64,000 nt of DNA, taken from positions 78,670 to 142,669 of the forward strand of contig JAYVSO010000125.1 of the NCBI GenBank assembly GCA_043775315.1, in the 5' to 3' direction. This document shows, piece by piece, positions 36,858 through 53,114 of this stretch. The notes beneath the pieces were generated by a model. It ran no database searches, had not been told where the DNA came from, and worked only from the letters and a program-made list of their open reading frames with translations. This DNA is from Verrucomicrobiota bacterium (GTDB lineage Bacteria > Verrucomicrobiota > Verrucomicrobiia > Limisphaerales > CANJSG01). Position 1 is the stretch's first letter; every line of letters starts with the position of its first letter. The position numbers were made by a program, and so were the translations under genes.

Positions 36858-37037
36858 AAGCTGCGGAGCAGCGAAAGAAAGTAGCCCACGGCGTGAGCTG
36901 TGGGTTTGGCGTCCGAAGAGAATCAAGCCCTGGAAGGGCGACAGAAGCGCGTCTGCCGCTCCTCCGGAGCTCCTGCGTTCGGCGCGGCGAACCCCGGGCT
37001 CACGCCCGGGGCTGCTGTCTTCCGCTGCTCCGCAGCT
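36858..37037. mobile_element. REPIN-like element copy 1 (inverted REP doublet)
   Basis: Terminal inverted repeats GCTGCGGAGCAGCGAAAGAAAGTAGCCCACGGCGTGAGCTGTGGGT ... GGGCTGCTGTCTTCCGCTGCTCCGCAGC, plus an internal CGGAGGAGCGG / CCGCTCCTCCG hairpin. Confidence 0.7.
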
Positions 37038-41846: not shown

Positions 41847-42818
41847 TCACCGCTTCTCCAGAATCCACTTGTTCTCGCGGATCCAGTCGATGGTGCGTTC
41901 GACGCTTTGGCGGATGGTCAGCTTGGGCGTCCAGCCGGTGGCGCGGATCCTGGCGGTGTCGAGGTAGATGAACGGGTTGTCGCCGACCCAGCCGCGGTCG
42001 CCGCCGGTGTAGTCGAAGCGCGGCGCGAGCCCGAGCCGCTGGCAGATGACGCCGATGGAGTCCTTCACCGTGACGAACTCGTCGGTGCCGAGGTTGTAGA
42101 CCTGCACGCGGTGTTTGGCGGTCTTGGCCGTGCCGGTCTTCACCACGTGCATGAGCGCGGCGATGCAGTCGCCGACATGGAGGTAGGACTTCCTCTGCGA
42201 ACCGTCGCCCAGCACGCGGAGGTGGTCCGGGTGGTCGAGGAGCTGCTTGTAGAAGTCGAAGACGTGCCCGTGCGTGTAGCGTTCGCCCATGATCGAGACG
42301 AAGCGGAAGACGTAGCCCTCGAAGCCGTAGCCCTCGCAGTAGGAATGGATGAGGCATTCGCCGGCGACCTTGGACGCGGCGTAGAGCGAGGTCTGGATGG
42401 GGAAGGGATGGTTCTCCGGCGTCGGGATGATCTCGGCCTCGCCGTAGACCGAGCCGGTCGAGGAGAAGGCAATGACCTTGGTGCCATTGGCCCGCATGGA
42501 TTCCAGCACGTTGAAGGTGGCGATGGTGTTCTGCTCCAAATCGCGGCGCGGATGGTTCAGGCCGAAGCGCACGTCGGCGTTGGCGGCGAGATGGTAAACG
42601 GTGTCGCAGCCAACCATGGCGGCGGTGAGGGCGGGCAGGTCGAGGTTGTCGCCGCGGACGAGGCGGAAGTTGGGATGCTTCAAGGCCCCGGCGAGGAAGG
42701 TTTCTTGGCCGGTGCTGAAGTTGTCCCAGCCGACGACGGTGCAGCCGGCGGCCAGAAGGACGTCGATCAGGCTGCTGCCGATGAAGCCGGCGGCTCCGGT
42801 GACGAAGACTTGTTTCAT
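41847..42818 (-). CDS. NAD-dependent epimerase/dehydratase (UDP-glucose 4-epimerase / UDP-xylose synthase-like extended SDR)
   Basis: VTGAAGFIGSSL and YAASK motifs. 323 aa. Confidence 0.85.
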   Translation of the reverse strand: MKQVFVTGAAGFIGSSLIDVLLAAGCTVVGWDNFSTGQETFLAGALKHPNFRLVRGDNLDLPALTAAMVGCDTVYHLAANADVRFGLNHPRRDLEQNTIATFNVLESMRANGTKVIAFSSTGSVYGEAEIIPTPENHPFPIQTSLYAASKVAGECLIHSYCEGYGFEGYVFRFVSIMGERYTHGHVFDFYKQLLDHPDHLRVLGDGSQRKSYLHVGDCIAALMHVVKTGTAKTAKHRVQVYNLGTDEFVTVKDSIGVICQRLGLAPRFDYTGGDRGWVGDNPFIYLDTARIRATGWTPKLTIRQSVERTIDWIRENKWILEKR

Positions 42819-43050
42819 GCAATGGGAACGGAACGGAAAGACGCCGCGAATTCAGTCGGTCCCGGCGGGAAACTCAAGGCGGGATGTTCGCGGTTGGAAA
42901 AGAGGGCAGCAAATCCTACTGGCCGCGCCCTTGGCGATTGGGTAACTCCATGTCCGTCCCAAGCCGAACCCAGTTGCCAGATCCGAGGACGGCGGGAGGA
43001 CGAACACGACGAAGGAGCCAAACCCAACCCCACCCCACGCTTTCCCGCCC

Positions 43051-45174
43051 ATGCAATACCTCATCTACGCCGCCATCGCGTTTGTCGTCCTGATCCCCAT
43101 CGCGATCACGATCGTGCTCTGCATCCGCAAGATCCACCCCGGCAAGGCCGGCATCAGCGTCGGCCTCGGAGGGCTGCGCGTGGCCTTCGACTACATGATC
43201 CGCCTGCCGCTGGTGCAGAACTTCGAGGAGATGGACATCTCCGTGAAGAAGCTGGAGATCCACCGCAAGGGCAAGGACGGCCTCGTCTGCAAGGACAACA
43301 TCCGCGCCGACATCTCCGTGGCCTTCTACATCCGCGTCGAGGCCACCGTGGACAGCGTGAAGAAGGTTTCCCAGATGCTCGGCGTCGAACGCGTGTCCGA
43401 CATGGCCCAGCTCCGCGAGCTGTTCGAGGCCAAGTTCTCCGAGGCGCTCAAGACCGCCGGCAAACAGATGGAGTTCCACGAGCTCTTCACCGAGCGCATC
43501 AAGTTCCGCGAACAGATCCAGGCCACCATCGGCAAGGATCTCGACGGCTTCTTCCTCCAGGACGTGGCGATCGACTACCTGGAGCAGACGCCGCTCGACC
43601 AGCACGACCCCAGCAACGTGCTCGACTCCGAGGGCATCCGGAAGATCACCGAGATCACCCAGCGCGAACGCGTCAGCGCCAACGAATTTTCCCAGCGCGC
43701 GCAGGTCCAGATCGAGAAGGAGAACGCCGACGCCGACATCGCCAAACGCGAACAGCGCCGCCGCAACGAGGAGGACACCGCCAAGCAGACCCGCGCCATC
43801 AACGAGGTGAAGGCCAACGAGGAGGCCGAGGCCCGCAAGGTCATCGAAGGTCGCCGCCAGGAAGTCGAAGGCAAGCGCCTGGAAGCCGACGAATCCATCC
43901 AGTTGCGCACCCAGGACATGAACCGCGCGGTGCAGGAACGGGAGTTCACCGTGAAGAAGGAACGGCAGCGCCTCGAACAGGAGGCTGTGCAGGAAGGCGA
44001 GGAGGCCCGCGTCCGCCGCGAACGCACGGTGTCGCTCGCCGAGATGGACAAGGAAGTGAAGGTCAACGAGGCCGCCGTCGAAGTGGAACGCAAGCGCGCC
44101 ACCGTCGTCTCCGAACAGAAGGCCGTCACCCAGCAGGAGGAGGAGAAGCGCAATATCGAGGCCCGCATGACCGCCGAACGCGTCCGCGAGGTCACGCTCA
44201 TCGAAGCCGAGATGAACGCCAAGAAGGACCAGACCGAGAAGGTCGTCGCCTCCGAGGCCCAGAAGGAAGTCGCGCGTAACGTCGCCGAAGCCGACAAGAT
44301 CCGGACCATCACCGCCGCCGAAGCGGGCCGCGAAGCCGCCTTGCGCGATGCCGAACGCATCCAGACCACCGCAGACGCCGAAGCCAAGGTCGCCGACAAA
44401 CGCCGCCACGCCGCCGAGCAGGAAGCCGAAGGCACCGCCGCCCGCGAAGCCGCCAAAGGCCTCGCCGAAGCCAAGGTCACCATCGCCAAGGCCGGGGCCA
44501 TGAAGATTGAGGCCGCCGCCATCAAGGAGGTTGGTCTCGCCGAAGCCGAGGTCATCAAGGCCAAGGGCATGGTCCAGTCCGAGAACACCCAGACCTTGGC
44601 AGAAGCCGACGCCACCGGCATCGAGGCCCGAGGCACGGCCGAGGCCAAGTCGATCCATCTGAAAGCCGACGCCATGAAGCTGCTCCACGCCGCCGGCCAG
44701 CAGCACGAGGAGTTCAAGCTCCGCCTCGCCAAGGACCGCGACGTCGAACTCGCCGGCATCCACGTCCAGCGCGACGTGGCCCAGGCCAACGCCCAGGTCG
44801 TCTCCGAGGCGCTCAAGACCGCCAAGATCGACATCGTCGGCGGCGAGAACGACTTCTTCGAGAAGATCGTCCGCAGCATCGGCACCGGGAAATCCGTGGA
44901 CCGCATGGTGCAGAACAGCGCCACGCTCACCGACATCAAGGAGACCTTCTTCAACGGCGACCCCGAGCACTTCAAGACCCAGCTCCGCCAGTGGGTCGCC
45001 GACTTCGGGATCAAGACCGAGGATCTGAAGAACCTCACGCTGTCCGCCCTGCTCGCCAAACTCGTCGCCTCCACCGACGACGCGGGAGTGAAGGCCACCA
45101 TCAAGTCCGCCCTCGCGCTGGTGAAGGAGAAGGGAATGGGAGAGGTGAAGGCGGAGACAGTGGTGAAGGCATGA
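43051..45174 (+). CDS. Flotillin family (SPFH/band-7) membrane protein with extended E/A/K-rich coiled-coil
   Basis: N-terminal TM helix, SPFH domain (ISVGLGGLRVAFDYMIRLPLVQN...DNIRADISVAFYIRV), then ~400 aa of EA-repeat coiled coil. Confidence 0.8.
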   Translation: MQYLIYAAIAFVVLIPIAITIVLCIRKIHPGKAGISVGLGGLRVAFDYMIRLPLVQNFEEMDISVKKLEIHRKGKDGLVCKDNIRADISVAFYIRVEATVDSVKKVSQMLGVERVSDMAQLRELFEAKFSEALKTAGKQMEFHELFTERIKFREQIQATIGKDLDGFFLQDVAIDYLEQTPLDQHDPSNVLDSEGIRKITEITQRERVSANEFSQRAQVQIEKENADADIAKREQRRRNEEDTAKQTRAINEVKANEEAEARKVIEGRRQEVEGKRLEADESIQLRTQDMNRAVQEREFTVKKERQRLEQEAVQEGEEARVRRERTVSLAEMDKEVKVNEAAVEVERKRATVVSEQKAVTQQEEEKRNIEARMTAERVREVTLIEAEMNAKKDQTEKVVASEAQKEVARNVAEADKIRTITAAEAGREAALRDAERIQTTADAEAKVADKRRHAAEQEAEGTAAREAAKGLAEAKVTIAKAGAMKIEAAAIKEVGLAEAEVIKAKGMVQSENTQTLAEADATGIEARGTAEAKSIHLKADAMKLLHAAGQQHEEFKLRLAKDRDVELAGIHVQRDVAQANAQVVSEALKTAKIDIVGGENDFFEKIVRSIGTGKSVDRMVQNSATLTDIKETFFNGDPEHFKTQLRQWVADFGIKTEDLKNLTLSALLAKLVASTDDAGVKATIKSALALVKEKGMGEVKAETVVKA

Positions 45175-45215
45175 CGGAGTTCGCCCGCCAAGAAGCCAAG
45201 TGATACAAGTAACCC

Positions 45216-45431
45216 ATGAAAACGATCCACGCGGTCTTTGAGCAGGGCGTCTTTCGTCCTTTGGAAAAGGTCGAGCTTCCGGAAAACACGGAAGTTGAGT
45301 TTGAGCCCCGCACCACCCTTGCGCGCCAACCGATGAAGGAAGGCATGGCCGCCATCTACGCCATTCTGTCCGAACGCTACGAGACCGGCGAAACTGACGT
45401 CGCGGCCCGGCACAACGAGCATCAGCCATGA
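45216..45431 (+). CDS. Type II antitoxin (DUF104/AF2212-like) paired with PIN toxin
   Basis: MKTIHAVFEQGVFRPLEKVELPENTEVEFE. 71 aa. Stop overlaps the PIN gene start (ATGA). Confidence 0.6.
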   Translation: MKTIHAVFEQGVFRPLEKVELPENTEVEFEPRTTLARQPMKEGMAAIYAILSERYETGETDVAARHNEHQP

Positions 45432-45826
45432 CGGTCTTCCTCGATACCATCGGCCTGCTGGCCGTCTGGGACAAGACCGACCAATGGCACACTGCGGCAA
45501 CGGTCAGCCTTGCTGGATTGCAGGCGGCCGGGGCGGAACTGGTCACGAGCGCGTATGTCCTGCTGGAGTGTGGCAATGCCGCCGCCCGTCGGCCGTATCG
45601 CCCGTCGGTCATCCGCTTGAAGCAGCGACTCGAAGCGGAGCGATGCCTGATCTTGCCGACCGAAGAAGATTGGTCTGTCGCTTGGAACGCCTACATCCGC
45701 GGCGAAGCCGACTCGGCTGGCATCGTGGACCAGGTCTCCTTCGCCGTGATGCGGCGGCTGGGGATCGCCACCGTCTTTACCAACGACAGACACTTCCTCG
45801 CCGCCGGATTTGAAACCCTGTTTTGA
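45428..45826 (+). CDS. vapC: PIN-domain toxin (VapC-like ribonuclease)
   Basis: MTVFLDT (first acidic residue), E at ~40, D..., and C-terminal TNDRHF. 132 aa. Confidence 0.8.
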   Translation: MTVFLDTIGLLAVWDKTDQWHTAATVSLAGLQAAGAELVTSAYVLLECGNAAARRPYRPSVIRLKQRLEAERCLILPTEEDWSVAWNAYIRGEADSAGIVDQVSFAVMRRLGIATVFTNDRHFLAAGFETLF

Positions 45827-45844
45827 AATGAAACCTGACCGCTT

Positions 45845-45965
45845 AGTCCTGTTCGCCAGACTCGCCGACGATGCCGACGTGAAATACGCGATCAAGTCCG
45901 CCCTCACGTTGGTGAAGGAGAAGGGAATGGGGGAGGTGGGGGCGAAAAAGGCGTTGGAGAGCTGA
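45845..45965 (+). pseudogene. Duplicated remnant of the flotillin 3' end
   Basis: Encodes LFARLADDADVKYAIKSALTLVKEKGMGEVGAKKALES*, against the flotillin C-terminus LLAKLVASTDDAGVKATIKSALALVKEKGMGEVKAETVVKA*. ~120 bp direct repeat flanking the vapBC cassette. Confidence 0.6.
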
Positions 45966-45998
45966 TCCGCCTGATATTCAGCCCAACCCAGTAACCAA

Positions 45999-46568
45999 AT
46001 GAACAGGTTCCTAGAAAAAGCCTTTCCACCGGACCTTGTTCTATCCCTTGGGCCGATCAGTGATCGCTTGATGGCCCCAAGCAACCTAGACCCGAGCGAC
46101 GTATTTGCCGTCATCGTCGCCTCTGGGCCAATCGAGATCCCCTACAGAATTTACGTTGAACCACTCACTCCCCAAGAGATCGACCATCTCCCCGAAAAAA
46201 TTCGGGGTGCTGTCGCCTGCTGGTTTTCAAGACATCACAACGGGCGAATTCGTGAGGATTTCTTACGAAGCATCACCGCTTATGATTCAGACTGGATTAT
46301 TGGCTACGTGTTGCCACTAAGCGGAGAATATGTTCTCCCAATTTTGGAGTTGATCTGGGACCGACGAGATCGTTTTGACATCTCAGTCCTGAGATCTTGG
46401 CTCAAGAACAACGATTCGTTCTACCATACCGTCAGGCGGCGAGTGGTTAGCTACTGGAATTGTTATCATAGACCAGGGAACCCGGATTTTCGGAAATATG
46501 TCGGCGGTAGACTGATCGATTTTTTTGACGGCTATCGAAAGCCTGCGTGCAACGCAATCTCAGCATGA
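45999..46568 (+). CDS. Hypothetical protein, low-GC orphan
   Basis: 189-aa ORF with markedly lower GC, between vapC and the REPIN/RAYT. No motif recognised. Confidence 0.4.
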   Translation: MNRFLEKAFPPDLVLSLGPISDRLMAPSNLDPSDVFAVIVASGPIEIPYRIYVEPLTPQEIDHLPEKIRGAVACWFSRHHNGRIREDFLRSITAYDSDWIIGYVLPLSGEYVLPILELIWDRRDRFDISVLRSWLKNNDSFYHTVRRRVVSYWNCYHRPGNPDFRKYVGGRLIDFFDGYRKPACNAISA

Positions 46569-46663
46569 AAGGGATTTTCGACAGCCGTATGCAACGCCCC
46601 AACGGGGCACCGCCTTCTAGCCCAGGATTGGCGCAACCGCGCCTACCCTGGGAACGCTTGTCC

Positions 46664-46867
46664 TCAGGCGCGGAGCGCCGAAAGAAAGTAGCCCACAGCG
46701 TGAGCTGTGGGTCCTCGTCCCCATTGATTCCCCAGCCCCGGAGGGGCGACAGAATCCTTCGCGCCAATCCCGCGCTCCGCATTCTTTCGCCCCTCCTGGG
46801 CTCGTCCGATTTCCCATCGCAACCCACGGCTCACGCCGTGGGCTACTTTCTGCCGGTGCTCCGCACC
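46664..46867. mobile_element. REPIN-like element copy 3 (5' flank of RAYT)
   Basis: GGAGCGCCGAAAGAAAGTAGCCCACAGCGTGAGCTGTGGGT ... ACCCACGGCTCACGCCGTGGGCTACTTTCTGCCGGTGCTCCGC. Confidence 0.75.
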
Positions 46868-46937
46868 TATGCACTGAGCCTCTGCCGGAATCACACCGCT
46901 CGACCTAAGATTCACTAGAAATCCGACCTGACCCACC

Positions 46938-47390
46938 ATGCCCCGCACTTACACCCAGCTTCTGAACCACATCGTGTTCAGCACGAAGGAGCGCCGGCCC
47001 ACGCTGACGCCGGAGCTGCGGGCGCGGCTGTTTCCCTACATGGGCGGGATCATCCGGCAGCTCGATGGAGCGGCCTTGCTGATCAACGGGGTCGCGGATC
47101 ACGTCCACATCCTCGCGTCGCTGCCCGCTACGGCGGCGTCTTCGGAGTTTGTCGGCAAGCTGAAGGCGAATTCCTCGAAATGGGTGCATGAGAACTTCCA
47201 GGAACATCGCGCCTTTGCATGGCAGCTCGGATACTCCGCCTTCAGCGTAAGCGTTTCGCAGAAGCAGGGAGTTTTGGACTACATCGCCGGACAGGAAGAA
47301 CACCACCGGAAGGTGTCTTTTCAGGAGGAGCTGATCTCGTTCCTGAAGAAGCACGAGGTCGAATATGACGAACGCTACGTGTTTGAATGA
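46938..47390 (+). CDS. REP-associated tyrosine transposase (RAYT; IS200/IS605 TnpA-like HUH Y1 transposase)
   Basis: 150 aa. HUH motif HVHILASLP, catalytic Tyr region LGYSAFSVS, and N-terminal YTQLLNHIVFSTKERRP typical of TnpA_REP. Flanked on both sides by REPINs. Confidence 0.8.
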   Translation: MPRTYTQLLNHIVFSTKERRPTLTPELRARLFPYMGGIIRQLDGAALLINGVADHVHILASLPATAASSEFVGKLKANSSKWVHENFQEHRAFAWQLGYSAFSVSVSQKQGVLDYIAGQEEHHRKVSFQEELISFLKKHEVEYDERYVFE

Positions 47391-47440
47391 AGATGGACGC
47401 CACCAACGCCATAAGCTCTGAAGCGAACCCATCTAGCCAC

Positions 47441-47634
47441 GGAGCGGCGGCAGACAGTAGCCCACAGCGTGAGCTGTGGGTTCTGATCACCCTGAATCTT
47501 AAGCCCCGGAAGGGCGGCAGAATTGTTCGCACCAATCGAGCTCCGACAGCTCTATCGCCCCTCCGGGGCTCATTCACTTTTGGCAGCCAACCCACAGCTC
47601 GCGCTGTGGGCTACTTTCTTTCGGTGCTCCGCAC
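47441..47634. mobile_element. REPIN-like element copy 4 (3' flank of RAYT, 5' of giant ORF)
   Basis: GGAGCGGCGGCAGACAGTAGCCCACAGCGTGAGCTGTGGGT ... ACCCACAGCTCGCGCTGTGGGCTACTTTCTTTCGGTGCTCCGC. Confidence 0.75.
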
Positions 47635-47690
47635 CTTGGGCCGGCTGCCGACGGTTCGGTCTTTTGACCACCATTTTGCCTCTTTGACCC

Positions 47691-50600
47691 ATGGCTGACC
47701 CCACTCCTCCAGCCCAGCCTTCCGCCACCGCCCCGTCCGCCCTCGTGGGCGCGACCTACGAGATCATCCGGCAACGGCTGGCGACGAACTCGTCCACGTT
47801 GCGCGAGCGCATGGGCAAGCTCGACGCACGGCGGCAGGAGGTCTTCGGGCGGATCGAGTCCAAGCTCCTCCAGGCCGACCGTGTCACCACCGCGCACAAC
47901 TGCATGCCGCGCGACATGGTCCCGCTCGGCCACGGCCGGTTCCTCTTCGCCTTCAACGTCCGGTTCGGCCTCAAGAAGGAGATGGATCTGGCGGATGTCT
48001 TCGCCATCTACCGGCGCGACGAGGCCACGGGCGGGTTCAAGGAGGAGTCGCTGGAGCCGCTCCAGGACAAGCAGTTCGTCACCGACTTCAAGCGCCTCTA
48101 CAACGTCTATGAGAAGACCGCGTTCAGGAAGTTCGCCGTCATCGGCGGGAACCTCTACGCCAAGTTCGGCACCGGCGCGTCGCTCAACGACTACGCCGTC
48201 TTCAAGTGGGCCTTCAACGACGGCAACCTCCGCTACCTCGACGGCCGCTCCGAGGCCGAATACCGCCGCGTCGGCTATCCGCCCACGCACGATTTCCGCT
48301 GGCAAACGCCCGACCGCGAGTCCTACCGCTACGGCGACCATCCGCACGTCTCCATCGCGGAGCGCGTCTTCGTCGAGTGCGTCGGCGGCGACCTCACCAT
48401 CAAGGTCGAGGACAACACCGCCACCGGCGAGGGCATCTATTCGGAGTCCGTGGACGACCGGCACCAGAAGGTGGACGACGCCGAAATCGCCTTCGCGGAG
48501 CTGGACCATCTGATCCTGCTCAAGGTCCGGCCCTACAAGGAAACCGCCGCCCGCTTCTTCATCTTCAACGAGAAGCTCCGCTCCGTCGTGCGCGTGGACT
48601 CCATCGGCGACGCCTGCGTGCGGTTGCCGGAGGAACACGGCCTGATCTTCCCCGACGGCTACTACCTCGGCACCGGCGAGCTGAAGCGTTTCGACGCGAA
48701 GGAAACCGGGCTGATCCTGGAGCGCGTGGTCCATTCGCCCAACGGCGAGGATTCGCTCTACGTCTTCCACGGCCGCGCTTCCGGCGAACACGTCCTGCTG
48801 CCCTACCGGTTGATCGAGCAGAAGGTGGAGGAACGCATCGCCTGCCACGGCTTCGCGCTGTTCCCCAACGGCCAGCTCATCCTCTTCCGCGCGGACGACG
48901 TGCCGCAGAAGCACCACCAGATCCAGCTTCGGCAGACGCCCTTCTACCAACTCGGCTTCGAACCTTCCGGCCAGAAGGACGCCTTCCTCTACCAGGTCGG
49001 CAACAAGGACGTGGTCCGCTGCCTAGCCGAGTGCAACGAGGTGCTGACGCTCGCCGGCAAGGACACGCCCTACGCCGAGCTGTATTCCGACCTCGTGCGC
49101 CGCTGCACCGCGATGCTTGATGCGTATCCGTGGCTCACGAGCCCGGATGGCTTCCAGATCAACGACGCGCTCCAGCAGCTCCGCGAGATCGCGGACAAGG
49201 CGGTGGATGAATTCGCCAAGGTCCGCCGGCTCCAGCACGAGGCCGTGCTGCGCATTGCCGACGTGAAGAAGCGTTGCGAGGAACGGTTCCAGGCCGCGCG
49301 CCGGGCCGCGTTCTCCAAGCTGGAGGACTTCGTCCACAACCTCGCCGCGCTCCGCCATCTCCGCGGCGAACTGATCATCACGCGCGAAGTCCGCTACATC
49401 GATCTCGCCGCTCTCGATACGCTGGAGAAGGCCGTCATCGCACAACTCGCCGAGCTTTCCGCCTTGTGCGTGAAATTTCTGCTGAAGCCCGAGGCGCTCG
49501 AGCCCTACCGCAAGCAGGCCGCCGAACACCTCGCCGCCGTGGACAAGGTCGCGAAGGTCGCCGACGGCCGGAAGTTGGAGAAGGCCGTGGCCGACGCGGG
49601 CGGCGAGCTGGAGATGCTCATCGAGATCGTCAACAGCCTGAAGATCGACGACGCCACCGAGACGACGCGCATCATCGACAGCGTCACGGCCGTCTATTCG
49701 ACGCTCAACCAGGTGAAGGCGGCGCTGAAGAAGCACCTCCAGGCGCTGGTCGCAACAGAAGGCGCGGCCCAGTTCAACGCCCAGCTCAAGCTCCTCGGCC
49801 AGTCCGCCTCCAGCTACCTCGACCTCTGCGACACGCCGGAGAAGTGCGACGAGTATCTCAACCGCCTCACCGTCCAGCTTGAGGAGATGGAGGGCGCGTT
49901 CGCCGGGTTCGACGAATACACCGTCCAGCTTTCCGACCGCCGCACCGAGTTCTACGAAGCCTTCGAGCAGCGGAAGATCGCGCTCGTCGAGCAGCGCAAC
50001 AAACGCGCCGGCGCGCTCCTGACCGCCGCCGAACGCATCCTCAAGGTCATCCAGAACCGCCTCGCCGGGTTCAAGGCGCTGGAGGAGATCCACACCTACA
50101 TGGCGTCGGACCTGATGACGGCGAAGGTCCGCGAAACGATCGAGCAGTTGCTGGAGTTGGGCGATTCGGTGAAGGCCGACGACCTGCAGGGCCGGCTCAA
50201 GACCGTGCAGCAGGACGCGGTGCGGCAGCTCAAGGACAGGCAGGACCTGTTCGTCGATGGCACGTCCGTCATCCAGCTCGGCAAACACAAGTTCAACGTC
50301 AACACCCAGCCGCTGGACCTGACCATCGTCCAACGCGAAGGCCAGCCGCACTTCCACCTGACGAGCACGAAGTATTTCGACCCGATCACCGACACGGACT
50401 ACCTCGCCACGCGGCAGGTCTGGGATCAGGAAGTGATCTCGGAGAACGCCGACGTTTACCGCGCCGAGTATCTCGCGTGGCAGATGATGAACGCTTCCAA
50501 GCTCGAAGACTTCCTCGCCCGCCCCGAGGACCAGCGCCTTGCCGCCGTGCAGGCGTTCATGGCCGCGCGTTACCAGGACGGCTACACCAAGGGCCTCCAC

Positions 50601-53114
50601 GACCTCGACGGCTCGCGCATTTTCTCCGTGCTGGCCGAGACGCATCTCGCCCTGCAACGCGCGCGATTCCGCCCCGAAGCGCGGGCTTGCGCGGTGGTTT
50701 ACTGGAGCCGCTTCTGCCCCGCTGAAACCCGCACGCTCTGGACTGCCAAGCTTGCGGCTTTCGGCGAACGCAACCGGCTCTTCCCCGGCGATCCGGTGCA
50801 GCAGGACTACGTCGCCGCGCTCCAGAAACTCATCGGCGAGTTCCTGAAAACCCAGCCGCTCTATCCCGAGACGCTGTCCGCCGAAGCCGGCGAATACCTG
50901 TTCCACGAGCTGAGCGACGGCGAGACCTTCACCGTCACCCGCGAAGCCGACCACTTTGCCACGGCGTTCCAGCAACACCTCGTCGCCAAGGGCCGCGACG
51001 ACACCTTCGCCGCCGCCCGCGCCGCCTTGAACAGGCATCCTTCCAGCGAGCTGGAACTCGTGCGCGACTGGGTGAAGGGATTCCTGCTTTCGCAGGTGGG
51101 TGCGGCTGCGCTGCGGCCGAACGCCGAGTCGCAGCGCGACTCGGCCCACCACACGTCGCATCTCGAAGAAACCACCGCCATCCTCTTCTGCGGCGACGCC
51201 CTGCCGCGCGCGGCCGTCCATGCCGAATCCCGCCGCGTGCTCGAAGCCATGCGCGGCGCGCATCCGCGCATCGAGGTCAGCCGCTACACCTTCGACTACC
51301 TCGACTTTACCGCGCGCCTGCGCCGTTTCGAGACCGAGGCCGCACCGCGCTTCGAGGCGTATCACCGGATCAAGGGGCAGTTGCTCGACCGCGAACGCAA
51401 GCGGCTCCGGCTCGACGAATTCAAGCCGCGCGTCCTCTCGTCCTTCGTCCGCAACCAGCTCACCGACCGCGTCTATCTCCCGATGGTCGGCGACAACCTC
51501 GCCAAGCAGATCGGCGCGGCCGGCGCGGCCAAGCGGACGGATCTGATGGGCCTGTTGCTCCTCATTTCGCCGCCCGGCTACGGCAAGACCACGCTGCTGG
51601 AATACGTCGCCAGCCGGCTCGGCATCGTCTTCGTGAAGATCAACGGCCCGGCCATCGGCCACGCCGTCACCTCGCTTGATCCCGAGGAGGCGCCCAACGC
51701 CGCCGCCCGCGAGGAGATCTCCAAGCTGAACCTCGCGCTGGAGATGGGCGACAACGCGTTGATCTGCATCGACGACATCCAGCACTGCAACCCGGAGTTC
51801 CTCCAGAAGTTCATCTCCCTCTGCGACGGCCAGCGGAAGATCGAGGGCGTCTGGCGCAAGCAGTCCCGCACCTATGACCTGCGCGGCCGCAAGGTCGTCG
51901 TGGTCATGGCGGGCAATCCCTACACCGAGAGCGGGCTGAAGTTCAAAATCCCCGACATGCTCGCGAACCGCGCCGACACCTACAACCTGGGCGACATCAT
52001 CGGTGGCAACGCCGAATGGTTCCGCGCCAGTTACCTCGAAAACGCCGTCACCTCCAACGCCACCCTCGCCCCGCTCGCCGTCCGCAGCCAGGGCGACATC
52101 CGCGCCTTCATCCGCATGGCCGAGACGGGCCAGCGCACCGCCGAGGGATTGGAGGGAACCTATTCCGCGCAGGAGCTGGACGAAGTGCTCTCCGTGTTGA
52201 AGAAACTCGTCGCCGTCCGCGACGTCGTCATGCGGGTGAACGAGGAATACATCGCCTCCGCCGGCCAGGCCGACGAGTTCCGGACCGAGCCCGCGTTCAA
52301 GCTCCAAGGCTCCTACCGCAACATGAACCGCCTCGCGGAGAAGGTCGTCGCCATCATGGACGACGACGAAGTCCGCGCGCTCGTCGTCGTCCATTACCGG
52401 GGCGAATCCCAGACGCTGACCACCGGGGCCGAGGCGAACCTGCTCCGCTTCAAGGAACTCATCGGCGAACTCAAACCCGACGAAGCCGCGCGTTGGGCGG
52501 ACATCAAGAAGACCTTCAAACGAAACCAGTTCACCCGGGGCGTGGACCCGGGCGATCCAGTCGGCCGCCTGGTGGCCCAGCTCGCGCAGTTCCAGGCCGG
52601 GCTCGAATCTATCCAGACCACGCTCGCCAGCGCCGCCGCGCGGTCGAAGGAACCCGTCGTGCTCGATGTCAGCTCGCTCGGCCAGAGCCTCGAATCGCTC
52701 CGCACCACGCTCGAAGACCGTCTCACCCGCGTCATCGCGGCGACGACCCCTCCCGCCGCCGCGCCTGCCTCGACCGCCGGCCTGGAGAAGATCGGCGCGC
52801 AGCTTGGGGAGGGGTTGAAAGCCTTGGGTGAAGATCTCCGCCGTAACGCCGGCGTCGTCCACGACGCGGCCATCACGGGCAAGATCGACAGCCTCTCGCA
52901 TGAGCTGGAGATGATCCACAGCACCATGGCGTCGTTGAAGGATCTAGCCACGCAGCAGCGCGACCATCTCCGCACCGCCGAGGAACTCCTCGCCACCCGG
53001 GCCAAGCAGGGCACGGTGGAAGTGGAGCTGACGCAGGAGATGCTCAGCAACGAACGCGTATTCATGGAACGCTTCCAACAGGTGCTCGACGACGCGCAGA
53101 AGCCGAAGACGTGA
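47691..53114 (+). CDS. Giant (1807 aa) uncharacterised protein with MoxR/AAA_5-like ATPase module in C-terminal quarter and multiple coiled-coil segments
   Basis: ATG at 47691 follows the REPIN. Continuous ORF with coding-like composition. Walker A ISPPGYGKTT (nt 51576-51593), Walker B ALICIDDIQH, sensor-like VVVMAGNPY. The N-terminal ~480 aa and the middle region have no recognised motif. Coiled coil at ~490-800 and 1650-1800. Confidence 0.7.
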   Translation: MADPTPPAQPSATAPSALVGATYEIIRQRLATNSSTLRERMGKLDARRQEVFGRIESKLLQADRVTTAHNCMPRDMVPLGHGRFLFAFNVRFGLKKEMDLADVFAIYRRDEATGGFKEESLEPLQDKQFVTDFKRLYNVYEKTAFRKFAVIGGNLYAKFGTGASLNDYAVFKWAFNDGNLRYLDGRSEAEYRRVGYPPTHDFRWQTPDRESYRYGDHPHVSIAERVFVECVGGDLTIKVEDNTATGEGIYSESVDDRHQKVDDAEIAFAELDHLILLKVRPYKETAARFFIFNEKLRSVVRVDSIGDACVRLPEEHGLIFPDGYYLGTGELKRFDAKETGLILERVVHSPNGEDSLYVFHGRASGEHVLLPYRLIEQKVEERIACHGFALFPNGQLILFRADDVPQKHHQIQLRQTPFYQLGFEPSGQKDAFLYQVGNKDVVRCLAECNEVLTLAGKDTPYAELYSDLVRRCTAMLDAYPWLTSPDGFQINDALQQLREIADKAVDEFAKVRRLQHEAVLRIADVKKRCEERFQAARRAAFSKLEDFVHNLAALRHLRGELIITREVRYIDLAALDTLEKAVIAQLAELSALCVKFLLKPEALEPYRKQAAEHLAAVDKVAKVADGRKLEKAVADAGGELEMLIEIVNSLKIDDATETTRIIDSVTAVYSTLNQVKAALKKHLQALVATEGAAQFNAQLKLLGQSASSYLDLCDTPEKCDEYLNRLTVQLEEMEGAFAGFDEYTVQLSDRRTEFYEAFEQRKIALVEQRNKRAGALLTAAERILKVIQNRLAGFKALEEIHTYMASDLMTAKVRETIEQLLELGDSVKADDLQGRLKTVQQDAVRQLKDRQDLFVDGTSVIQLGKHKFNVNTQPLDLTIVQREGQPHFHLTSTKYFDPITDTDYLATRQVWDQEVISENADVYRAEYLAWQMMNASKLEDFLARPEDQRLAAVQAFMAARYQDGYTKGLHDLDGSRIFSVLAETHLALQRARFRPEARACAVVYWSRFCPAETRTLWTAKLAAFGERNRLFPGDPVQQDYVAALQKLIGEFLKTQPLYPETLSAEAGEYLFHELSDGETFTVTREADHFATAFQQHLVAKGRDDTFAAARAALNRHPSSELELVRDWVKGFLLSQVGAAALRPNAESQRDSAHHTSHLEETTAILFCGDALPRAAVHAESRRVLEAMRGAHPRIEVSRYTFDYLDFTARLRRFETEAAPRFEAYHRIKGQLLDRERKRLRLDEFKPRVLSSFVRNQLTDRVYLPMVGDNLAKQIGAAGAAKRTDLMGLLLLISPPGYGKTTLLEYVASRLGIVFVKINGPAIGHAVTSLDPEEAPNAAAREEISKLNLALEMGDNALICIDDIQHCNPEFLQKFISLCDGQRKIEGVWRKQSRTYDLRGRKVVVVMAGNPYTESGLKFKIPDMLANRADTYNLGDIIGGNAEWFRASYLENAVTSNATLAPLAVRSQGDIRAFIRMAETGQRTAEGLEGTYSAQELDEVLSVLKKLVAVRDVVMRVNEEYIASAGQADEFRTEPAFKLQGSYRNMNRLAEKVVAIMDDDEVRALVVVHYRGESQTLTTGAEANLLRFKELIGELKPDEAARWADIKKTFKRNQFTRGVDPGDPVGRLVAQLAQFQAGLESIQTTLASAAARSKEPVVLDVSSLGQSLESLRTTLEDRLTRVIAATTPPAAAPASTAGLEKIGAQLGEGLKALGEDLRRNAGVVHDAAITGKIDSLSHELEMIHSTMASLKDLATQQRDHLRTAEELLATRAKQGTVEVELTQEMLSNERVFMERFQQVLDDAQKPKT
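51102..51150. repeat. Compound palindromic element, in-frame inside the giant ORF
   Basis: GCGGCTGCGCTGCGGCCGAACGCCGAGTCGCAGCGCGACTCGGCCCACC, ~42 nt identical to 34386..34434. Translates as AAALRPNAESQRDSAHH. Confidence 0.6.

Follow-up and report, generated by a model that had tools for sequence, protein, structure and literature searches.

How can the 3' end of one gene come to lie on both sides of a toxin-antitoxin (TA) pair, in two copies that each run to a stop codon of their own? The question is raised by a DNA stretch of 64,000 nucleotides (nt) from a member of the Verrucomicrobiota (GenBank assembly GCA_043775315.1, contig JAYVSO010000125.1, positions 78,670 to 142,669 of the forward strand), referred to here as the window. 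In it, a TA pair stands behind a gene whose product carries the name flotillin, and it is followed by a second, truncated version of the flotillin 3' end (the stub), by a small open reading frame (ORF) denoted orf189, by a Y1 transposase gene and by a large ATPase gene. A preliminary description of the locus had placed two explanations side by side, namely integration of a TA module by duplication of its target, or replacement of the flotillin 3' end. The comparison with related loci (numbered with the prefix L) shows that two alleles of a variable gene slot have been concatenated; homology-anchored plus illegitimate recombination is the likely cause, which would make the locus a cassette-stacking scar at a recombination hot spot.

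Results

The flotillin 3' end is present in two allele classes

The segment behind the TA pair re-encodes the last ~40 residues of the flotillin-named gene. In a local nucleotide alignment, positions 45048-45064 and 45074-45153 pair with 45848-45944, with one in-frame gap of 9 nt, and the score of 93 compares with 17.2 ± 2.5 (maximum 37) in 500 shuffles. A separate repeat search aligned 45074-45168 with 45865-45959 at 78% identity over 95 nt, and the stub, which is in frame up to its own stop at 45965, gave a tblastn E-value of ~1e-7. The similarity between the two segments is therefore significant, and the claim that a second copy of the flotillin C-terminus with a stop of its own lies here was borne out; every element of the preliminary description was found on the coordinates given there or no more than a few bases away.

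The translation of the stub reads ...IKSALTLVKEKGMGEVGAKKALES, and that of the intact gene ...IKSALALVKEKGMGEVKAETVVKA. The copies are ~80% identical and match across IKSAL.LVKEKGMGEV; their final 8-9 codons are unrelated, with the intact gene ending in KAETVVKA and the truncated copy in GAKKALES. Among 120 homologues of the upstream protein, tails of the KAETVVKA class and of the GAKKALES class are both normal C-termini of full-length proteins, and these two classes and a third one, AASSAIAKS, all occur even among proteins that are more than 90% identical to the protein of the window. Duplication of a target site upon insertion of the TA module was therefore rejected: such an insertion cannot give two tails that are both normal C-termini in relatives, and here each tail fits a different class of bona fide flotillin tails. 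The identity of the copies (78-80%), their unrelated end codons and the lack of a recombinase gene between them speak against it as well.

The tails also differ in their usual company. KAETVVKA precedes the TA pair in five of six other lineages, and its class is found in relatives with and without the pair. GAKKALES resembles the tail ahead of an orf189 homologue in a relative, at the same spacing of ~33 nt. The nearest protein tail to the stub is that of L090 (73% over 33 residues), and the nearest nucleotide match is that of L003 (84% over 76 nt).

Each half of the locus has a single-cassette counterpart

Each slot allele is built of the 3' tail of flotillin, a leader of 10-40 nt and a cassette gene. 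The left half of the locus (flotillin 3' end, leader of 41 nt and TA pair) is collinear with L025, L145-148, L149-152 and L153/154 at a nucleotide identity of 72-84% (L025 72-78%, L145 83%, L149 83%, L150 84%), and the leader is conserved among the TA-bearing relatives. In all of these loci the TA pair comes first after the flotillin stop, as it also does in L155, behind a leader of 12 nt. The right half (45890-47637), which comprises the end of the stub, a spacer of 33 nt between the stub stop and orf189, orf189 itself and the transposase gene between repetitive extragenic palindromes (REPs), is collinear with L090 at 74%; there, an orf189 homologue starts 37 nt behind an intact flotillin gene ending in GAKQAIES, and the same Y1 block comes next. 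In L086-089, exactly 33 nt separate the intact flotillin gene from the orf189 homologue. Since each half has a single-cassette counterpart, the window contains two slot alleles in tandem (Table 1), concatenated through one illegitimate junction after the PIN stop, with the flotillin 3' segment as their common homology. Tails of different allele classes, one of them at its native spacing to orf189, support a recombination scar and a replaced flotillin 3' end, both of which the preliminary description had considered.

At the junction, homology to L144, L149 and L153 stops 4 nt past the PIN stop codon (TGAAATG), and homology to L025 runs ~18 nt past it. The ~20 nt that follow the junction are only loosely flotillin-like, and a TGAA microhomology with flotillin CTGAAGAACC is possible at this point.

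A chimera of two strain variants in a metagenome assembly was considered as the origin of the join, given that the window and the related loci are contigs from metagenomes or metagenome-assembled genomes (MAGs) and that the diversity of the slot at strain level is high. Yet the identical structure was recovered twice, in the 142,669-bp contig at NCBI and independently in a Logan assembly (L081) that is recorded for two samples. The junction sequence is unique DNA and not a shared k-mer; the longest exact match between the copies is ~21 nt; the ~45 nt past the PIN stop have no close match in any intact flotillin gene, so they must exist in the reads; and an analogous junction occurs in the sister genome described below. 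An assembly artefact of this kind is scarcely credible.

Table 1. Features of the slot and of its flanking genes, in window coordinates
Feature	Position	Strand	Evidence
Flotillin-named (YqiK-like) membrane protein gene, 707 aa, upstream anchor of the slot	43051-45174	+	ORF; >7,600 homologues
Intact copy of the duplicated 3' segment, tail ...GEVKAETVVKA*	45048-45174	+	Alignment, repeat search
TA unit (last ~19 flotillin codons, 41-nt leader, antitoxin, toxin, AATG)	45118-45830	+	Near-identity to GFS_5502
Antitoxin, AF2212-like (COG2880, former DUF104), 71 aa	45216-45431	+	PF01954, E=1.5e-9
PIN-domain toxin (VapC-like), 132 aa	45428-45826	+	PF01850, E=2.5e-9
Illegitimate junction, TA-unit end to truncated flotillin 3' end	45827-45847	.	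Homology breakpoints
Truncated, displaced flotillin 3' end (stub), tail ...GEVGAKKALES*	45848-45965	+	Alignment; 9-nt in-frame deletion in decayed 5' part
orf189, cassette gene going with the displaced tail	45999-46568	+	ORF, low GC
REP palindromes on both sides of the Y1 gene; right-hand part of the slot	46666-47636	.	Inverted repeats
IS200-like Y1 (RAYT-type) transposase gene	46938-47390	+	PF01797, E=2.7e-22
DUF3686/DUF7902 AAA-ATPase gene, 1807 aa, downstream anchor of the slot	47691-53114	+	Pfam matches

A sister genome carries the same junction ahead of another displaced tail

The closest relative found is the MAG GFS_5502 (L006 and L144); its identity with the window is ~97% over the flotillin gene and 96% over the initial 1.3 kb of the ATPase gene. 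Its gene order is flotillin, TA pair, stub, orf86 and ATPase. Its stub begins at the same point, directly past TGAAATG, ends in a tail that differs from that of the window (GEMKAETAVKA) and is undecayed, with 1 mismatch in 95 nt relative to the intact copy of the same genome; orf86 lies 34 nt further on, as in the single-cassette locus L002. This second stub came to light later, through look-ups of the PIN protein: tblastn and blastn searches of ~90 related loci with all flotillin tails had matched only the window and its duplicate L081.

The TA unit differs between the two genomes at 5 of 713 nt (0.7%), compared with 85 of 3,288 nt (2.6%) in the flanking flotillin and ATPase sequences (Fisher p=0.001). 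Since it is about four times less diverged from GFS_5502 than its flanks are, the TA unit has been exchanged more recently than its surroundings; on the left, the exchanged part begins somewhere inside the final ~19 codons of flotillin. No sharp step that would mark the left border of the transfer appeared in sliding-window comparisons with L145, L149 and L153, the step being visible only against GFS_5502.

The identical position of the junction in two genomes, together with the identical right boundary TGAAATG in three downstream contexts (the window, L144 and L149/L153), would be expected if the TA pair travelled in a site-specific mobile element (a transposon, an integron-like cassette or an element mobilised by the transposase) with a fixed insertion site in the flotillin 3' end, a target that it would duplicate; the Y1 transposase gene lies only ~1.1 kb downstream. 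Against such an element stand the content of the interval between the repeats, which is limited to the two TA genes and includes no recombinase, and the repeats themselves, which are ~80% identical and end in unrelated tails that fit two allele classes. In addition, the cassette spacers of 20-40 nt contain no attC-like palindromes, the TA-bearing loci L025, L144, L145 and L149 are without a Y1 gene, and there is no duplication at most TA-bearing loci. A site-specific element is thus a very unlikely explanation.

The course and the direction of the exchange

The structure would be accounted for by the following steps. Of the two tandem alleles, allele 1 combines the KAETVVKA tail with the AF2212-like/PIN pair, and allele 2 the GAKKALES tail with orf189 and the resident block of REPs and REP-associated tyrosine transposase (RAYT). 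On the left, incoming DNA with a flotillin 3' end and the TA pair would have recombined homologously inside the flotillin gene, and on the right it would have been joined illegitimately, just past the PIN stop, to codon ~660 of the resident flotillin gene. The mechanism would be homology-facilitated illegitimate recombination (HFIR) or, equivalently, single-crossover integration of a small circle. Because the incoming DNA would have brought a complete 3' end, the flotillin ORF would have stayed intact, and the resident 3' end, now a stub without a promoter, would have come to lie further downstream, where it still stands ahead of its own cassette.

The arrival of the TA unit, as opposed to that of the orf189 allele, is favoured because the TA unit has a low divergence and the Y1 block is resident, and we give this direction about an even chance. 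The reverse polarity would start from a resident flotillin-TA-ATPase arrangement, as in L145, L025 and L153, into which a partial flotillin 3' end with orf189 and the REP-RAYT block was imported, by an illegitimate join behind the PIN stop on the left and a homologous one in the REP/ATPase region on the right; the stub would then be imported DNA. This would fit with the TA pair standing directly before the ATPase gene in several lineages, with the foreign-looking GC content of orf189, with the decayed 5' part of the stub (as expected of an old or divergent import) and with L149, in which an R2K_3 gene is stacked behind the TA pair without any stub. However, the phylogeny of the Y1/REP block on the right-hand side of orf189 agrees with that of flotillin, so the block is resident; the anomalously low divergence between the window and GFS_5502 is in the TA unit and not in the right-hand part; and the sister genomes are alike on the TA side and unlike on the stub side, which is simpler if the TA unit is the mobile part. 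The import of the orf189 allele is therefore regarded as rather unlikely.

Several observations nevertheless weigh against the stacking of alleles as reconstructed above, with the TA unit as the newcomer. An orf189 allele with a flotillin arm, if added behind a TA pair already in place, would give an identical structure. The 5' third of the stub is strongly decayed, with ~19% substitutions in addition to the 9-nt deletion, yet the TA unit hardly differs from its counterpart in GFS_5502, a combination that sits uneasily with a very recent arrival of this unit. Past the junction, only 12 of ~21 nt match between the window and L144; consequently, if one junction was inherited by both genomes, subsequent conversion or decay must be assumed, and if two events took place independently, their breakpoints must have coincided. 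Finally, the tail AAKQALES precedes R2K_3 in L003 and orf180 in L156.

A further, doubtful possibility is that the TA unit, lying between two flotillin 3' copies, is a mobile cassette that needs no recombinase of its own. A RecA-mediated crossover between the copies would free a circle of ~0.8 kb, made up of the flotillin arm, the tail, the TA pair and the junction, which would re-enter any flotillin 3' allele by a single crossover, take over the ORF and displace the resident tail together with its cassette. If true, this would explain why the same junction is followed by different displaced tails in two genomes, why the TA unit is roughly four-fold less diverged and why the TA pair always comes first in the slot.

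The TA pair is an ordinary member of the COG2880-PIN family

The ORF map shows an antitoxin gene and a toxin gene that overlap by ATGA, the stop codon of the former and the start codon of the latter, and the assignment of the two products to a DUF104-type antitoxin and a PIN toxin was confirmed by Pfam. The antitoxin reached 38.6 bits against PF01954 (cut-off 21.6), with residues 2-28 only, and the toxin 38.2 bits against PF01850 (cut-off 23.6); the toxin also matches VapC20 of M. tuberculosis (5wzf) at E=2.2e-5 in a search of the PDB sequences. Toxins like VapC20 cleave the sarcin-ricin loop of 23S rRNA. The PIN motifs around D6, E47, D101 and D120, presumably the catalytic residues, are kept in seven of the eight slot-borne copies and are partly altered in L025. 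The antitoxin-PIN pair is present in seven further loci, and the PIN toxin has ~1,000 homologues spread over many bacterial phyla. The cassette is vapBC-like, as had been proposed. It is not a one-off insertion at this flotillin gene, for at least six other lineages also have the pair as the first item behind flotillin. PADLOC returned no match for any protein of the region.

The combination of COG2880 (DUF104/AF2212) with PIN proteins is a predicted TA family (Makarova, Wolf and Koonin 2009, PMC2701414). The gene layout, the acidic residues of the PIN toxin and an antitoxin family that pairs with PIN proteins are all as in type II (VapBC-like) systems, and the pair is most likely a type II module in which a PIN ribonuclease is neutralised by the antitoxin. 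It is an ordinary new member of the COG2880-PIN family, and judging from its sequence it most likely persists through addiction.

The antitoxin gene starts 41 nt past the flotillin stop. Neither a sigma-70-like promoter nor a terminator-like site was found by a site scan between the flotillin stop and orf189, and the sole terminator-like site ahead of the REP hairpins is at 46205, within orf189; the scan gives no support for transcription of the TA pair on its own. Because no promoter- or terminator-like site intervenes, the TA pair, the stub and orf189 are probably reached by readthrough from the flotillin gene, with which the TA genes are probably co-transcribed.

Comparison among the relatives reveals divergent versions of the pair. 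The flotillin and ATPase proteins of L025 and L145 are 89-93% identical, compared with 55% for the antitoxin and 53% for the PIN toxin (L025 4748-5358, L145 2739-3349). The PIN ORF of L025 has a GTG start, and one of its motifs reads LLEGG instead of LLECG. The TA pair of L025 either has been replaced by a divergent homologue or is decaying, as far as its sequence suggests. In L153 (2234-2375) and L154 (2959-3100), a remnant of the R2K_3 cassette, ~50 nt in length, lies behind the PIN stop, namely the leader and the first 8 codons as in L149, the remainder being deleted; this is a second kind of scar in the slot. The divergence between L025 and L145 and the remnant in L153/154 are signs of a non-vertical history and turnover of the TA pair.

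An ATG behind the PIN stop opens the frame of the stub

In the motif TGAAATG (window 45824-45830, L144 1034-1040, L149 4749-4755), an ATG follows 1 nt past the PIN stop. It is in frame with the next ORF in three contexts, namely with the stub in the window and in L144 and with R2K_3 in L149, an arrangement that suggests translational coupling. In the window, the frame opened by this ATG (45828) has 45 codons and contains the stub. It is a possibility that the stub is kept open, as an ORF of 45-48 codons, and delivers ribosomes to the displaced cassette as in the native context. The frame is open from this ATG in both the window and GFS_5502; two examples are no evidence of selection. The stub ORFs are singletons among 15 billion proteins, and for annotation purposes the ORF of 51 residues at 45810-45965 should be treated as a gene remnant and not as a gene.

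The slot is hypervariable among close relatives

The spacer between the flotillin and ATPase genes is a hypervariable slot for accessory genes and probably a recombination hot spot. Its gene differs almost from genome to genome among close relatives and starts 9-40 nt past the flotillin stop. The contents comprise orf164 (L083, L071), a SUKH-1 (SMI1/KNR4) protein (L004), DUF1877 (L085), orf86 (L002), orf107 (L001), orf180 (L156), an R2K_3 ATP-grasp protein (L003, L021) and BrnT/BrnA (L066). Further slots of varied content are those of L149-152, L144, L023 and L045/L053, and a lipoprotein and several orphan ORFs are among the contents overall. Many of the slot genes belong to families of the immunity or TA type. 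A strict linkage between tail and cassette was considered and rejected, as B-type tails stand ahead of R2K_3, orf180 or orf189 in different genomes.

orf189 has a GC content of 47-53%, against 62-70% in its flanks, and only five homologue clusters among 5.8 billion proteins. In both clusters that were looked up besides that of the window, the gene lies 33-37 nt after an intact flotillin gene. The protein has no match in Pfam, NCBIfam or PADLOC, and an AlphaFold model (five sequences, mean predicted local distance difference test score of 60) retrieved nothing from the PDB at E<=0.001 with Foldseek.

The Y1 gene is flanked by two composite REP palindromes of ~200 bp. The REP hairpin GTAGCCCACAGCGTGAGCTGTGGGT has eight copies in the window, against none expected, among them dispersed copies at 36881, 39671, 53205 and 53339, and a Y1 transposase between inverted REP hairpins with dispersed copies is the arrangement of a REP/RAYT system; the match of the protein to the NCBIfam model REP_Tyr_transpos is weak (19.7 bits, cut-off 80). 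A Y1 gene is present in the flotillin/ATPase spacer of at least 11 relatives, and its tree tracks that of flotillin; because of this agreement, the block is taken to be resident and not recently imported, and the gene has the appearance of a RAYT retained by vertical descent. A distant lineage as the source of the REP-Y1 block was rejected, since the divergence of the block scales with that of flotillin. Insertion mediated by the RAYT was rejected as well, as Y1 is vertically inherited and TA-bearing relatives (the four named above) are devoid of it.

The anchor genes form a conserved unit

The ATPase gene follows the flotillin-named gene in nearly all of 80 Verrucomicrobiota loci (L001-L080), and the two are a conserved two-gene unit in this phylum. 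The spacer between them is 7-170 bp in distant relatives, often 7-100 bp, and 0.3-2.5 kb in close relatives. PADLOC has no match for the pair, and a literature search found no paper on DUF3686.

Homologues of the upstream protein are named "flotillin family protein" or "YqiK" by NCBI and JGI. The protein itself had no match in Pfam, even at E<=1, in NCBIfam or among the PDB sequences, and a profile search with 20 sequences gave only QmcA, at E=0.014 and across a coiled-coil stretch. The label flotillin is a name taken from NCBI and JGI annotations, and no match to a Band_7, SPFH or flotillin domain model was found. Long overlapping ORFs on the opposite strand or in other frames (898, 790 and 641 residues) occur on both strands of the window at 41907-45612; they are the usual stop-poor frames of GC-rich DNA and not genes.

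Discussion

The locus can be compared with several known systems in which the 3' end of a gene is exchanged. Displacement of C-termini, leading to arrays of orphan modules, is reportedly known from rhs, cdiA and type VI secretion system (T6SS) effector-immunity loci, where Jackson in 2009 and Poole in 2011 are said to have described it. The likenesses are considerable: behind a conserved 5' body the 3' end varies and is followed by a small gene, the ORF is taken over by a new 3' end with its module, and the old end is displaced together with its partner as an "orphan". In the window as in GFS_5502, a 5'-truncated 3' end lies downstream with its partner at native spacing (33 nt to orf189 and 34 nt to orf86, respectively), and the slot genes of relatives include families of the immunity type (SUKH-1, DUF1877). 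HFIR or a homologous anchor is the proposed mechanism in both cases, the displacement model with HFIR having been put forward for T6SS effector-immunity arrays and rhs loci (Kirchberger 2017, PMC5361080). By analogy, the scar would be a new instance of this known displacement pattern, in an unusual carrier locus.

There are also clear differences. The variable tail comprises ~10 residues here and is not a toxin domain, and orf189, in the place of an immunity gene, is without a family or fold match. The carrier is not a secreted toxin but a flotillin-named membrane protein with an AAA ATPase as its partner. Instead of an effector tip with an immunity gene, a TA pair complete in itself forms the incoming module, and there is one displaced stub in place of a long array. 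Genomic islands at the 3' ends of tRNA and tmRNA genes are similar in that the incoming element brings a substitute 3' end, which keeps the gene intact, and leaves the old end on its far side; in contrast to these islands, the locus contains neither an integrase nor near-identical att repeats, and the element has a length of ~0.8 kb. An integron cassette array was considered and rejected: no attC-like palindrome is present, the spacers are 20-40 nt long, and the genes neighbouring the slot encode an epimerase and the ATPase. The only inverted repeat that touches 45175-46600 is a weak pair of 18 nt with arms 1.1 kb apart, which is not attC-like.

The TA pair resembles VapBC-type and COG2880-PIN modules in its gene order, with a small antitoxin gene first and an overlapping PIN toxin gene second, in the matches to both Pfam families and the retained acidic PIN residues, and in its patchy, horizontally mobile distribution. 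The COG2880-PIN family has been described mostly from thermophiles and archaea (PMC2701414), whereas the host is a mesophilic member of the Verrucomicrobiota here and the PIN homologues occur across many bacterial phyla. A second difference is that a promoter of its own was not detected for the pair, which, 41 nt behind the preceding stop, is probably transcribed by readthrough.

The scar is a dated snapshot, at the level of single bases, of the exchange and stacking of small accessory genes at a hot spot of the chromosome, with no dedicated recombinase involved; the genes concerned are a TA pair and immunity-like genes, and the hosts are uncultured Verrucomicrobiota. It extends the pattern of C-terminal displacement from rhs, cdi and T6SS loci to a carrier gene that does not encode a toxin, and it flags the flotillin-like/DUF3686-ATPase gene pair as a conserved unit that attracts small accessory genes.

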